From the NCBI GenBank assembly GCA_046052345.1, contig JBJOMN010000010.1, positions 67,841 to 131,840 of the forward strand: 64,000 bases of DNA, given 5' to 3'. Below are positions 59,410 to 64,000 of this stretch, in pieces. The notes beneath the pieces are model-generated. The model was not told the DNA's origin. It saw only the letters and a list, made by a program, of their open reading frames with translations, and ran no database searches. Made by a program: the position numbers and the translations under genes. How positions within the stretch are numbered: position 1 is the stretch's first letter; every line of letters begins with the position of its first letter. The DNA comes from Bacteroidota bacterium. GTDB lineage: Bacteria; Bacteroidota; Bacteroidia; AKYH767-A; 2013-40CM-41-45.

Positions 59410-60822
59410 ATGAGCAAGATAAAATTCGGTACCGACGGCTGGAGAGCCATCATCGCAGAGGATTTCACCGTACAGAACGTGGCGCGCGTCGCGGAAGCTA
59501 CCGCCGATTGGATGCTGAAACGTTCGTCTTCGCCTTCCGCAGTGGTCGGACACGACTGCCGCTTCGCCGGCGAATTGTTCGCAGAGACTGTTGCGAAAGT
59601 TCTGGCCGCCAAAGGAGTGAAGGTAAAGCTGGCCAAAGGTTTCGTTTCGACGCCGATGATTTCTCTGGGTGCCGTCAATCACCAATGCGACCTGGGCGTC
59701 ATCCTGACGGCATCCCACAACCCTCCTTCGTACAATGGATTTAAACTGAAAGGACATTTCGGCGGTCCGCTTTCTCCTGCGGACGTACAACAGATCGAGG
59801 ACATCATTCCGGATACCTGCAGCATCGACGTAACCGGCATGACACTCACGGATCTCATCAATCAAGGCAAGGTGGAGTGGGTCCCCCTCGAAGACGAATA
59901 CATCGCACATGTCGAAAAGAACTTCGACCTGGAAGCCATCCGTCGTTCAGGACTAAGGCTCGTGTACGATGCGATGTACGGGGCAGGACAGAATGTCATG
60001 AAGCGGCTCTTCCCGGACATCCGTATGCTGCACTGCGACTACAACCCCGGCTTTAACGGTCAGGCACCCGAACCCATCCATAAGAACCTGAAGGAATTGA
60101 GCGCCTTGATGTCCGGCGGAGGATTCGACTGTGCCTTGGTCACTGACGGAGACGCGGACAGGATCGGCATGTACGACGGAAACGGATCCTTCGTCGATTC
60201 GCACCACATCATCCTGCTCCTTATTCATTACCTGTACAAATACAAAGGGCTGCGCGGAAAAGTCTGTACCGCTTTCAGCACGACGCCGAAGGTGGAGAAG
60301 CTGTGTCGTCACTATGGCCTTGAACTGGAGACGGTCAAGATCGGATTCAAGTACATCTGTGAGATCATGCTGAAGGAGGACGTCCTGCTGGGCGGAGAGG
60401 AAAGCGGCGGTATCGCCATCAAGGGACACATCCCTGAACGCGACGGCATCTGGATGGGACTGGTCATCTGGGAATTCATGGCCAAATCCGGAAAGAGCCT
60501 TCCGGCACTCGTTCAGGAAATCTATGAGATCGTAGGGGCTTTCGCGTACGAACGAAACGACCTGCATCTGACCGAATCAGTCAAGAACCGCATCGTCGAA
60601 CGCACCTCGAAGGGATACTACAAGGCGTTCGGTCCGTATGGGGTGAAAAAAGTAGAGGACTTGGACGGATTCAAATACTTTTTCGATGACAACCGGGACG
60701 AATGGTTGCTGATAAGGGCCTCCGGAACCGAGCCGGTTCTCCGGACCTATGCCGAGTCGAAGGATAAAGACGGTGCAGCCAGGATCCTGGAAGCGGCAAA
60801 GGCCACCCTGCTGGCCGACTGA
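59410..60822 (+). CDS. Phosphoglucomutase/phosphomannomutase family protein (alpha-D-phosphohexomutase)
   Basis: FGTDGWRA, the active-site TASHNP (phosphoserine loop), the metal-binding DGDADR and a sugar-binding GEESGG loop. The start is refined to MSKIKFGTDGWR at 59410. Confidence 0.85.
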   Translation: MSKIKFGTDGWRAIIAEDFTVQNVARVAEATADWMLKRSSSPSAVVGHDCRFAGELFAETVAKVLAAKGVKVKLAKGFVSTPMISLGAVNHQCDLGVILTASHNPPSYNGFKLKGHFGGPLSPADVQQIEDIIPDTCSIDVTGMTLTDLINQGKVEWVPLEDEYIAHVEKNFDLEAIRRSGLRLVYDAMYGAGQNVMKRLFPDIRMLHCDYNPGFNGQAPEPIHKNLKELSALMSGGGFDCALVTDGDADRIGMYDGNGSFVDSHHIILLLIHYLYKYKGLRGKVCTAFSTTPKVEKLCRHYGLELETVKIGFKYICEIMLKEDVLLGGEESGGIAIKGHIPERDGIWMGLVIWEFMAKSGKSLPALVQEIYEIVGAFAYERNDLHLTESVKNRIVERTSKGYYKAFGPYGVKKVEDLDGFKYFFDDNRDEWLLIRASGTEPVLRTYAESKDKDGAARILEAAKATLLAD

Positions 60823-61118
60823 AAGGCATTTATTACCCGTTTTTTTCTTTTTCCGACCCTTTTTAAGGTCAAAACCAAGCGCGGTTTTAGCAGATGAAAT
60901 GAGACGTACCGCTGCGGTAGCTGCAGAATATGTCCTTCTGCGCTTGAAAATCGACATTCCCCGGCGTTCCTCTTACAACTCCTTATGGCGTGTCCTACGG
61001 ATTTGTATCGGAAAATAAGGCTCATCCGCGATTTAATAATCCTTCTTCAGTAATCAAGCAGTGCTTTCTTACATCCGAAAGGGGAGCAATCGTGTTCACA
61101 CATCTTTCGCCCGAATAG

Positions 61119-61267
61119 GTCCGTTATTAGTACTGTATTCGGCTGGTTACCGGATACATGGTTTGGTTAGGTTTGGTTTGAATCAATCCCGTAAGATTGA
61201 TTGGTCCCTTCAACCCCGTAAGGTTGAAAAGAAAGTCCGGCTCGAAAGAGCCGGCTTTTTTATTTTC
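61119..61267 (+). ncRNA. Candidate structured sRNA, copy A (unclassified): conserved 55-nt 5' block, two CCGUAA-loop hairpins, intrinsic terminator
   Basis: The block 61119-61173 is identical to copy B at 53 of 55 positions. It includes a 9-bp stem tgtattcgg/ccggataca with loop ctggtta. Hairpins are aatcaatc-ccgtaa-gattgatt and ttcaacc-ccgtaa-ggttgaa. A conserved TTGGTCC follows. A terminator ccggctc-gaaa-gagccgg plus a U tract lies at 61237-61267. The region is non-coding and AT-rich. Confidence 0.35.
61237..61267 (+). terminator. Rho-independent terminator of sRNA copy A
   Basis: ccggctcgaaagagccgg followed by ctttttttatttt. Confidence 0.7.
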
Positions 61268-61607
61268 TACCTCCCGAAGACTTTTGAGGCATCAAGCACA
61301 GCTAAACCGCCGGCGCTCGCCAACCATCAAATTTCATCGCTCAATCCGAAGCTTCCGAAGAGTTGAGGGATTCTGATTGAAAGGTGCGACCGCCTTTAAA
61401 CGGGACGTATTGTCAATATGGAAGTGAATTTCAGCCGGAGTGAAATAGATTTCAAAAGCTCGGCGACAATCTTACACCGGAATTTCAGCGAAAGGATATC
61501 AAAGGAAGCCTTAAAACGAGTTATTACGGTGCCGGGCATCAAAAGGGAAATGTTTCCTTACACCATCAATGCAGGCCTCCTGTTTGCAGCATCAACTGCT
61601 CCGCAAT

Positions 61608-61734
61608 GTCCGTTATTAGTACTGTATCCGGCTGGTTACCGGTTACATGGTTTGGTTAGGTTGACTTAAACCGATTCTTAAATCGGTTGGTCCAAACGGA
61701 AGTCCGGTCATTAATGACCGGATTTTCGTTTTTA
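61608..61734 (+). ncRNA. Candidate structured sRNA, copy B (paralog of copy A)
   Basis: The conserved block 61608-61662 is followed by the hairpin aaccgatt-ctta-aatcggtt. That hairpin has a different sequence but the same stem length and position as in copy A. Then come TTGGTCC and AAGTCCGG, and a terminator tccggtca-ttaa-tgaccgga plus ttttcgttttt. Confidence 0.35.
61703..61734 (+). terminator. Rho-independent terminator of sRNA copy B
   Basis: An 8-bp stem tccggtca/tgaccgga with loop ttaa, then a T-rich tract. Confidence 0.65.
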
Positions 61735-61760: not shown

Positions 61761-62279
61761 TTAGCGCACTAACAGCGCGGGGATACGGACCGCAAATCTG
61801 TATAGGCCGAAAAGCAGTCCGGTGTAGAAAAGGTCGCCAAGCAGCTGATTGCGATAAAAAGGAAGTGCAGCCGTGTAACTCTGTAAAGCTCCCTGCAAAT
61901 CAAAGGAATACATGCCGGGATAAAAGAAGGGGAGATTGGTAACCAAGTAGAATACCGTCGAGCAAAAGACGGAGGAAGCGGCGATCTTCAGCGCGTTGGT
62001 TTCTGCGGAAAGTCTTCGGCCCACCGCAACAGTCAGCAGGAAGCAGGCATATACCGGAAACATCGTCGGATGCAGGCCGATGATAAGATCGGAGACCAAT
62101 AAGGCGCTGACCGGAACGAGATAGGAAAGATAACGGTTGCCCATGCGAGCGCCGGAAAACAGGGCCAGTGCGCCAATGGCCGTCATGTTGAACGGATGAC
62201 TGATCAATCGGGTATATGCGGCTAAAAGGACCAACAGGCCGGCGATGATTACGTTGCGGTTTCTCTCGTTTTGGAACAT
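61761..62279 (-). CDS. Small polytopic membrane protein (DUF6580-like), co-transcribed downstream of a TonB-dependent receptor
   Basis: Five or six hydrophobic helices (VIIAGLLVLLAAY..., IGALALFSGA..., LVSDLIIGL..., VYACFLLTVAV...). The start is refined to MFQNERNRN (cat at 62277-62279), 29 nt after the receptor stop. Confidence 0.45.
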   Translation of the reverse strand: MFQNERNRNVIIAGLLVLLAAYTRLISHPFNMTAIGALALFSGARMGNRYLSYLVPVSALLVSDLIIGLHPTMFPVYACFLLTVAVGRRLSAETNALKIAASSVFCSTVFYLVTNLPFFYPGMYSFDLQGALQSYTAALPFYRNQLLGDLFYTGLLFGLYRFAVRIPALLVR

Positions 62280-62307
62280 GGTTGCGAATTTAGTGATTTG
62301 AAAGTAA

Positions 62308-64000
62308 TCAGAAAGCGAAGGAGACACCAAGTTGTATGCCCCGGCCTCTTGTTCTGAACCCGTAAATCTCCTGATAGTCAGCATTCAGCAGGTTTTCTGC
62401 CCGAAGGTTCACACTGAGGCCGGAAGAAGGCCGCCAGACTGCCGAAAAATCAGCCAGGGTGTAGGAGGCTACCGATTTCCTGTTCAAGGCTCCATAGGGC
62501 CCTAAAGCGCTGTCATAATAGATGTCGGGTCTCTTTCCGGTGTAACGGACCTGGAATGAAAAGGTGAAATCCCGAAATGGGCGGTAATCCAAGGCGGCGA
62601 GAAATGTGGAGGGCCTTCGAAGAAGTCCGTAATAACGGTCCTTGCCTTCCAAAAAGATACCGGTGGCATAGGACTGGTAGTGGAAGCTGCTGTCGCGCTC
62701 CGGGTCGGACTGGTCAAGATATCCGTCAAGTACTGTTCCGTTCATCCGTAGTACGAATCGGTCGTTTAGTCTGGCCGACAAGCCCAACTCGAAACCGTAG
62801 ACGGTCTGGTCACCGACATTCACATAGCGGTCGCCACGGTAGTCATCACGGTTGAAATCGGCACCCAGCTGTACAACCGGAATCGCTCCGTCCCAAAGAT
62901 AAACGTAGTCGATCAGCCCCGCGGTGAAGGAACGGAAGACGGAGGCTTCCATCTGTATGTTGCCGTTGATTTGTGTTTTGTAACCCAGCTCAGCCGAAAG
63001 TGTTTTCTCCGGCGAAAGAGATTTGTTTCCGCGGGTCATTCCGGAAGCCGGCTGACCGTCCCAAGGCTGGTAGGTATCAGGAGCGAACAGCTGATACAGC
63101 GAGGGATTGGTGAAGCCGCTGGAAAAGGAAGCATATGCTGTGGACCTGTCGCTGATACGGAATGACGGTGAAAAATCGAACGATGATGCAATGCCGCAGA
63201 TGTCATGGTAATTCAATCTTGCTCCGAAAAGGATATTCCATCTGTGCATATCCTGATGAAATAAGGTCCCGTTGATGTCGCCGTGTACGAAAGCAGCAGT
63301 ATTCCGGGCAGTGGGAGACAAGGCGTCAAGATCGGTGGAATAGGAGAGGATGAAAGGATCGTATTGGGCTGAATAGAACTCGTTGCGCTGGTTCATGGCT
63401 TCGGATAGGAAGCTCAGGCCGCCCACGATGCTGGTGGCATGGTCGACGTAACGGAAAGTGAGATCGGAGGTGAGCTGGCTGCCGTTGTAGTCGTCACGGA
63501 ACCAGGTCCGGTCGTTGAGGCCGGTCGACAAGGATATGGATGAATCGTTCAGTGCGTTCCTGGAGGTGACCGACCATCCGGCAGTGGCATTCACTGTCCA
63601 GCTTGGCGACAACGTGAAAGTCATTTCGGCACCGGCCGATTTTCTGCGGAAGTCAAGCACGTAATTGTCATCGTCCCTATAGGCACCTGCATCAATGGAG
63701 GTGGTCGAGGAAAGGGTGCGGTAAAACATGTGAAGCGAAGTCTTCGCGGACAAGTAGCCGGTAGCCACCTCCAACGCTCCTTTTTCCCACGGATCGGCAT
63801 CGGGTCGGAATTCCGGCAGGATCAATCCGGTATCAAGCGTGGCATTGAAGCCGGTAGCGGTGAAATAATCACTGCCTGTCCTCAGATACCATCCACTCGG
63901 AGAAGAATAGGAGAGCGTACCGTAGCTTCCGGCATCCCGTCCGTTTTCGGCGAACAGCCCGGCACGTGCACCGAAACGCCCGTGATAGCCGCTCTTCAGG
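62308..64000 (-). CDS. TonB-dependent receptor. It is partial: the N-terminus lies beyond the window end.
   Basis: A C-terminal 22-strand barrel region with the terminal motif ...GIQLGVSFAF. The reading frame stays open to position 64000. Confidence 0.75.
   Translation of the reverse strand, partial: LKSGYHGRFGARAGLFAENGRDAGSYGTLSYSSPSGWYLRTGSDYFTATGFNATLDTGLILPEFRPDADPWEKGALEVATGYLSAKTSLHMFYRTLSSTTSIDAGAYRDDDNYVLDFRRKSAGAEMTFTLSPSWTVNATAGWSVTSRNALNDSSISLSTGLNDRTWFRDDYNGSQLTSDLTFRYVDHATSIVGGLSFLSEAMNQRNEFYSAQYDPFILSYSTDLDALSPTARNTAAFVHGDINGTLFHQDMHRWNILFGARLNYHDICGIASSFDFSPSFRISDRSTAYASFSSGFTNPSLYQLFAPDTYQPWDGQPASGMTRGNKSLSPEKTLSAELGYKTQINGNIQMEASVFRSFTAGLIDYVYLWDGAIPVVQLGADFNRDDYRGDRYVNVGDQTVYGFELGLSARLNDRFVLRMNGTVLDGYLDQSDPERDSSFHYQSYATGIFLEGKDRYYGLLRRPSTFLAALDYRPFRDFTFSFQVRYTGKRPDIYYDSALGPYGALNRKSVASYTLADFSAVWRPSSGLSVNLRAENLLNADYQEIYGFRTRGRGIQLGVSFAF

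Follow-up and report, generated by a model that had tools for sequence, protein, structure and literature searches.

Post-transcriptional control is poorly understood in Bacteroidota, a phylum from which the classical RNA chaperones are missing. The small RNAs (sRNAs) FopS and GibS (Rfam RF04319 and RF04182) pair near start codons and are bound by RbpB, a protein with an RNA recognition motif (RRM), and the phylum is said to be without Hfq, ProQ and CsrA (PMC11697453). In Pseudomonas, the sRNAs RsmY and RsmZ are driven by the GacA box, TGTAAG-N6-CTTACA (PMC4950607). Here, we describe two elements, copies A and B, that stand in tandem on the forward strand of a 64,000-nucleotide stretch of DNA (hereafter the window) from a Bacteroidota bacterium (contig JBJOMN010000010.1) and that are, judging from their sequences, very probably two independent sRNA genes. 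An earlier note on this DNA had read them as functional small RNAs rather than as protein genes or inert repeats, a view now supported by the covariation, promoter layout, terminators and intergenic homologues described below. Taken as a whole, the statement that A and B are tandem regulatory sRNAs of a new family, the repeated loops of which bind a protein, has in our estimate about an even chance of being right.

Two tandem elements share a 55-nucleotide block between convergent genes

The two copies, A at 61119-61267 and B at 61608-61734, lie on the + strand in a gap of 940 nucleotides (nt) between the convergent genes for PGM (phosphoglucomutase/phosphomannomutase; + strand, ending at 60822) and for a DUF6580 protein (- strand, stop codon at 61761). 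This gap is convergent and AT-richer than its surroundings, both as the earlier note had remarked: its GC content is 0.45-0.47, and that of the flanking genes is 0.52-0.56. The block of 55 nt shared by the two copies was located at 61119-61173 and 61608-61662, with 53 of 55 positions identical; it has no further copy in the 64 kb, where 0 matches are expected by chance. In each copy, the block is followed by a hairpin of 8 base pairs (bp), then by the strings TTGGTCC and AAGTCCGG, which the earlier note had already seen in both copies, and finally by a private intrinsic terminator. The terminator of A (61237-61266) reads CCGGCTC-GAAA-GAGCCGG (61237-61254) with the T run CTTTTTTATT, and that of B (61703-61734), which is probably bidirectional, reads TCCGGTCA-TTAA-TGACCGGA (61703-61722) followed by TTTTCGTTTTT, its end lying 27 nt from the DUF6580 stop codon. 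When folded against shuffled controls, A and B were both more stable, with z scores of -4.3 and -5.7, respectively.

The hairpins behind the block had been described as entirely different in sequence, which turned out to be wrong even though each copy does have one: the arms in A (AATCAATC/GATTGATT) and in B (AACCGATT/AATCGGTT) have 5 of 8 positions per arm in common, and the remaining three pairs are fully compensatory from A to B (U-A to C-G, A-U to G-C and C-G to U-A). The loop of this hairpin is CCGUAA in copy A (hp1, 61181-61202, AATCAATC-CCGTAA-GATTGATT) and CUUA in copy B (61669-61688, AACCGATT-CTTA-AATCGGTT), where the CCGUAA loop has been lost. Copy A contains a second hairpin (hp2, 61209-61228, TTCAACC-CCGTAA-GGTTGAA) that is missing from copy B, which explains why the two copies differ in length. 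The block differs at two positions: the first change replaces a U.G pair in the 5' hairpin by C-G, and through the second a U-A pair is lost; both are non-synonymous, as had been claimed.

The boundaries of the 55-nt block are sharp, with 96% identity between A and B inside it and flanks that are near saturation. Tandem paralogues in a related locus (L003, 11621-11770 and 11867-11983) also have lineage-specific 5' sequence in common, and orthologues from different genera diverge far more than tandem copies inside one genome. Such common 5' sequence in tandem copies suggests gene conversion or concerted evolution, or else co-evolution with a common partner. An independent assembly of the same organism (L002, Logan SRR35181308) ends within the 55-nt repeat, at approximately window position 61150, which is consistent with an assembler break at the duplicated block.

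Relatives of copy A carry hairpins with a near-invariant CCGUAA loop

Contigs with PGM proteins 75-80% identical to that of the window show the same DUF6580/TonB-receptor neighbourhood, with homologous RNA-like elements at the same place. In these relatives, the 5' motif GCGTTA is followed by a body that varies, then by three hairpins (CAATC-CCGTAA-GATTG, TCAACC-CCGTAA-GGTTGA and CCAGCC-CCGTAA-GGCTGG) and finally by a T run. Scanning one genome per species with a pattern of two CCGTAA-loop hairpins gave 71 loci, approximately 66 of them from Bacteroidota metagenome-assembled genomes (MAGs) of freshwater, soil and sludge; the complete genomes of Candidatus Pollutiaquabacter aromativorans and Chitinophagaceae bacterium LGM1 are included, and 4-5 of the 71 were chance matches in other phyla. 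Among 2.9 million viral contigs, neither the hairpin pattern nor a 5'-block pattern gave any match. The 5'-block pattern also gave none in a metagenome scan, where a pattern of GGUUW tract plus loop returned only two chance matches that were rejected by the covariance model.

On an alignment of 42 members, RNAalifold recovered three hairpins, the helices of which are paired in 98.4% of the cells, with changes on both sides in 11 of 17 pairs. None of 500 column shuffles matched the observed covariation values, and sliding the partners by 1-3 columns as a control left only 9-44% pairing. Loop conservation in these members is at least 90%, while the stems vary; the hp1 core CAATC/GATTG is also at least 90% conserved together with its loop, and hp2 shows compensatory changes in relatives (TCAGCC/GGCTGA and GGAGCC/GGCCC). 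The hairpin homologous to the terminator of copy A has a CCGUAA loop in relatives. At the 5' end, the motif CCGTTA of copy A (61121-61126; family consensus GCGUUA) has C2 and G3 invariant over the 42 members and T4, T5 and A8 conserved in at least 90%.

A census of hairpins in the collected DNA (stems of at least 6 bp and loops of 6 nt) counted CCGTAA 138 times on 59 different 5' arms, with the runner-up loop at 10. Consecutive loops are spaced by a median of 30 nt (interquartile range 28-32, n=142) and occur as 2, 3, 4, 8 or 9 per cluster, counts and spacings that are biased upward because the collection pattern demanded two loops, stem diversity being unaffected. In two lineages, arrays of approximately 10-11 hairpins form a single terminator-ended unit (L049 2030-2535, from Chitinophagaceae bacterium LGM1, and L025 4990-5380). 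Further long-array loci are L079 and L018; the hairpins of the arrays all have the CCGUAA loop, and their linkers are CA-rich or purine-rich and approximately 12-16 nt long. The array architecture looks like that of a sponge RNA. Within the window, CCGUAA hairpins are confined to copy A, and the most conserved feature of the family is the loops of these 3' hairpins, not the 55-nt block. Judged from the sequence, readings as anticodon-arm mimicry, T-loops, CRISPR-like repeats, ToxI-like repeats or promoters of extracytoplasmic function (ECF) sigma factors or sigma-54 were dropped, as loop size, spacing or required neighbour genes did not fit.

A leave-out covariance model, trained on 18 members with none from the window, matched copy A over its full length with 81.2 bits (E 2e-16, a rough value because calibration was shortened) and nothing else in the window; model R1 gave copy A 104.8 bits. 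Copy B reached only 15.9 bits with the leave-out model and filters off, and the 47 bits that it obtained with model R1 came from a training set that contained B. Its membership in the family thus rests on paralogy to A, as shown by the 55-nt block, a homologous hairpin that differs by three compensatory pairs, the strings TTGGTCC and AAGTCCGG, and the equal promoter spacing. Copy A has two CCGUAA loops closed by C-G and 27 nt apart, within the approximately 26-32 nt by which we define the family; copy B has CUUA as its loop and a deletion in place of the second hairpin. Copy B is a diverged tandem duplicate of A rather than its equal twin, apparently a functionally diverged or decaying one that kept the 5' block and the first stem and lost the loops. 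Tandem duplication of the locus was seen in the window and in L003, L031, L021 and L050, copy A being the upstream copy as in L003 and L031, and otherwise there is one orthologous locus per genome. Because of this, the differences in the 5' body between loci are divergence of orthologues, not specialisation of paralogues.

This 5' body is largely weakly structured in single-sequence folds of the loci. In copy A, it contains the hairpin P1 (61134-61158, TGTATTCGG/CTGGTTA/CCGGATACA), and at the same position relatives keep a hairpin with different arms (TGTATTCT/AGAATACA in L003, TGTTTCGAT/ATTGAAACA in L031, GTGTTTC/GAAGCAC in L005 and GTGTTC/GAACAC in L006). Since MAFFT misaligned the arms of these short hairpins, covariation in P1 was taken from direct reading and single-sequence folds only. 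P1 is followed by a G/U-rich tract of GGUUW repeats (61159-61180) that would be mostly single-stranded and is a lineage-specific candidate base-pairing region; its predicted fold is a weak helix of five pairs (AUUAG/UUGGU, including G-U pairs) plus a C-C/G-G closing pair, the rest being largely unpaired. The tract is seen only in the closest relatives (L003, L021 and L031). It is also present in copy B (61648-61662), and the four GG runs with 3-nt spacers in copy A formally fit a two-tetrad G-quadruplex motif.

Rfam 15 gave no match at gathering scores in the whole window, nor any in 18 related loci apart from cobalamin riboswitches elsewhere in those loci, and ARAGORN found no tRNA and no tmRNA in the window; this agrees with the earlier note, which could not match the elements to signal recognition particle (SRP) RNA, 6S RNA, tmRNA, RNase P, tRNA or any riboswitch. 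At permissive thresholds, Rfam returned only weak, terminator-driven matches in the gap and, apart from cobalamin riboswitches, in the 18 related loci. The best named match in the gap was FopS, which scored 18.9 bits there and 17.1 bits in L008, its gathering threshold being 56; the match is limited to model positions 23-71 and covers only the A-rich linker and terminator. The family is absent from Rfam 15 and conserved in a clade of uncultured Bacteroidota, and nothing relevant to it was found in the literature on the loop sequence, DUF6580 and the named relative. It adds RNA models for annotating MAGs of freshwater, soil and sludge Bacteroidota, in the records of which the locus is currently without annotation or mis-called as a small open reading frame.

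A common upstream dyad and promoter-like box precede the family RNAs

Upstream sequences of the family align without gaps as CTTAC-N4-GTAAG, 19 nt, nATCTTTn, 12-13 nt and [G/C]CGTTA, the dyad being imperfect with a better conserved left half. The Bacteroidota -7 element is TAnnTTTG, which the nATCTTTn box resembles; canonical promoters of the phylum are mentioned in PMC11697453. With this layout, the RNA is predicted to start a few nt before GCGTTA, with the dyad centre near -40, and for copy A the predicted transcription start would lie a few nt 5' of 61121. Exact TTAC-N4-GTAA sites number 33 in 682 kb; 26 of these stand 60-260 nt 5' of family sRNAs, and the other 7 correspond to the chance level.

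In copy A, an imperfect palindrome at 61066-61083 (TTCTTAC-ATCC-GAAAGGG), a candidate transcription-factor site, has the core CTTAC-ATCC-GAAAG (61068-61081) exactly 19 nt 5' of the -7-like box CATCTTTC (61101-61108), as in other family members, with CCGTTA following after 12 nt; with 3 mismatches to the consensus, this palindrome is not significant by itself. In copy B, CTTAC-ACCA-TCAAT (61557-61570), a degenerate site with only the left half, is followed after 19 nt by the box position CATCAACT (61590-61597) and after another 12 nt by CCGTTA. The spacings are thus exact in both copies, the elements being weaker in B, and L053 has the same CATCAAC box variant as copy B. The dyad is presumably bound by a dimeric transcription factor, and such sharing of a promoter element suggests a small regulon. 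The hexamers CTTACA and TGTAAG of the dyad (L007, L026, L061, L064 and window 61066-61083) are the half-sites of the GacA box in everted order with a 2-nt gap.

The RNA 3' end meets a convergent operon that has a cobalamin riboswitch in relatives

The DUF6580 gene (61761-62279, - strand; Pfam PF20221, E 6e-45) is the last gene of a convergent TonB-receptor operon. Using tblastn, we found it adjoining a family RNA in 37 loci, with an opposite flank that varies between PGM, an AIM24 protein and a PKD protein. In all 33 measured loci, the 3' hairpin lies at the DUF6580 stop codon on the opposite strand (median 16 nt from the RNA 3' end, range -10 to 68), which suggests that the last hairpin is probably a bidirectional terminator shared with the operon; this hairpin has an A tract on one side and a T tract on the other. 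The window operon (61761-64000, - strand) runs off the end before its leader, and in relatives whose operon leader lies within the collected DNA the operon is headed by a cobalamin riboswitch scoring 108-111 bits (L003 14823-15007, L039 2902-3081 and L064 1508-1689), so that DUF6580 is probably part of a B12-uptake system. The constant pairing of the sRNA with an uptake operon under riboswitch control suggests a link to B12 acquisition.

Another orthologous sRNA locus of the same MAGs, frequently a tandem pair, is flanked by a divergent ribBA and a convergent TamB gene: L058 2157-2616 (- strand), L030 2485-3071, L028 7355-7816 and L016 1622-2096, as well as L044, L057, L012 and L077. It also has the CCGUAA loop and the CTTAC-N4-GTAAG dyad, which lies 41 nt, not 19, upstream of the TATCATTG box, approximately two helical turns further.

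Repeated loops may be recognition sites for an RNA-binding protein

We propose that A and B are two tandem sRNA genes of the + strand that would be transcribed independently, each from its own promoter to its own intrinsic terminator. Their RNAs would start with the conserved GCGUUA, followed by a 5' body that evolves rapidly (in the window lineage, a hairpin and the GGUUW-repeat tract) and by a conserved module of 3' hairpins spaced by approximately 30 nt, with CCGUAA loops closed by C-G. These loops may be recognition sites for an RNA-binding protein, probably a multimeric one; this would explain most economically why selection is strongest on a sequence-specific hexaloop that is displayed 2-11 times with regular spacing and on interchangeable stems, and the RNA would then act as a protein-bound regulator that titrates this protein or uses it as a scaffold; that the loops are recognised in this way is an idea to which we give slightly less than an even chance. 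Expression of the sRNA would be under a dedicated transcription factor binding to the dyad, and the last hairpin would also terminate the convergent TonB-receptor/DUF6580 operon. The loop could serve as bait in the search for an RNA-binding protein not yet described, and the promoter element could lead to its transcription factor.

Several points weigh against this proposal. The analysis yielded no candidate for the binding protein, and mRNA leaders in the approximately 680 kb of sampled DNA showed no CCGUAA hairpin. Copy B is without the loops and yet keeps its stem by compensatory changes, showing that the loops are not the sole selected feature, and loop conservation could partly reflect common descent together with selection for a stable terminator-type hairpin. 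The right half-site of A has one mismatch (GAAAG) and B retains the left half only. All sources are MAGs or metagenomes, the transcription start was placed from a promoter-like box, and the upward bias of loop counts and spacings and the roughness of the model E-values have to be kept in mind.

The alternative that survives best is that A and B are base-pairing, trans-acting sRNAs with a seed in the 5' end GCGUUAAA or in the G/U tract, the CCGUAA hairpins being inherited modules for stability and termination. Mostly weakly structured 5' domains and an almost invariant 5' GCGUUA would fit such a function, as would the resemblance of the 5' region and terminator to FopS/GibS (PMC11697453), and a common target could explain why A and B are nearly identical in the 5' block and different in their 3' modules. 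Beyond 6-8 nt at the 5' end, however, no seed is conserved between genera, and the loops, on their 59 different stems, are more conserved than any candidate seed; duplex prediction for the variable 5' regions against nearby translation-initiation regions at six loci, which covered local genes only, gave no signal above shuffles. We regard base pairing as less likely than recognition of the loops by a protein, but still as a fair possibility.

Rather improbable is a second alternative, in which the RNA is a cis-acting partner of the convergent B12-uptake operon and complementary 3' ends let it control the TonB-receptor/DUF6580 mRNA through stability, 3' processing or read-through. In the 37 loci, the RNA does keep DUF6580 as its neighbour, with PGM, AIM24 or a PKD protein on the other side; the DUF6580 stop codon and the 3' end of the sRNA are separated by a median of 16 nt, and the A and T tracts around the terminator would serve both strands. 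Nevertheless, the same kind of RNA is found between ribBA and TamB and the arrays of L049 and L025 stand in other contexts, showing that the conserved module is not specific to the B12 operon; moreover, the overlap would be confined to the terminator barring read-through, copy A is 490 nt away from the operon, and tight spacing alone would keep the synteny without any functional link.

Small protein-coding genes, such as the 83-amino-acid gene of the JGI annotation (61418-61669, + strand), are a very unlikely explanation: in both copies, one and the same frame does cross the 55-nt block without a stop, but in copy A it continues through the terminator, both block differences are non-synonymous, stem substitutions are compensatory, indels in homologues are not multiples of three, there is no Pfam match, and in the intergenic homologues, for which the earlier note had suggested looking, 36 of 42 are interrupted by stops in each of the three forward frames, and none of the frames is conserved. 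The JGI gene runs across the 5' block of copy B and its promoter; as it neither matches Pfam nor is conserved in relatives, it is probably a spurious call. Inert or selfish repeats (palindromes of the repetitive extragenic (REP) or miniature inverted-repeat transposable element (MITE) kind, transposon ends or att-site remnants) are just as implausible, since the direct repeat of 55 nt and the recurrence of hairpins within and between loci stand against only two copies in 64 kb with hairpins nowhere else in the window, a syntenic position fixed across genera, the presence of promoter and terminator, the lack of terminal inverted repeats and of any nearby transposase or integrase, and the absence of matches in the viral contigs.

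Comparison with known systems

Among the sRNA families described from the phylum, FopS comes nearest, but its covariance model is not matched here and its architecture is another one. FopS and GibS of Bacteroides are, like A and B, multi-copy Bacteroidota sRNAs with their own promoter, an intrinsic terminator and a conserved 5' end (RF04319 and RF04182; PMC11697453). In contrast with the family described here, FopS consists of a single-stranded 5' seed and one terminator hairpin, has neither CCGUAA hairpins nor a CTTAC-N4-GTAAG site, and belongs to gut Bacteroidaceae.

In E. coli, the GadY sRNA overlaps the 3' end of gadX. The arrangement here is similar in that the sRNA lies opposite an operon 3' end, with 5-30 nt between the terminator hairpin and the stop codon, but the overlap is probably limited to the terminator, and the presence of the module at other loci indicates that antisense action is not required. 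Non-canonical LexA operators of Bacteroidota read CTAA-N5-TTAG, GGA-N5-TCC or TTAC-N5-GTAA, and a TTAC/GTAA dyad is bound by the Elizabethkingia repressor (PMC8565304). Compared with these, the family dyad has a spacer of 4 nt instead of 5, and there are no SOS genes near the family loci; an SOS operator was rejected as the identity of the dyad because of this difference in spacer length, and it is kept as a lead only.

The architecture parallels that of CsrB and RsmX/RsmY/RsmZ, with which the family has in common a single invariant loop motif, regular spacing, a repeat number that varies with lineage (2 to approximately 11 in the CCGUAA family) and a dedicated palindromic site upstream of the sRNA promoter. 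CsrA is not known from Bacteroidota. The loop motif is GGA in the Csr/Rsm RNAs and CCGUAA here, and no Csr/Rsm family of Rfam was matched, even at E values up to 10. While the dyad CTTACA-N2-TGTAAG has the same half-site hexamers as the GacA box, they stand in opposite order and closer together, and the match may be a coincidence. It is conceivable, though on balance doubtful, that the CCGUAA hairpin is the element of a global Bacteroidota RNA-binding protein and that a Gac/Rsm-like circuit has been built here from unrelated parts. The resemblance to CsrB/RsmZ is in our reading one of architectural analogy, not of membership.

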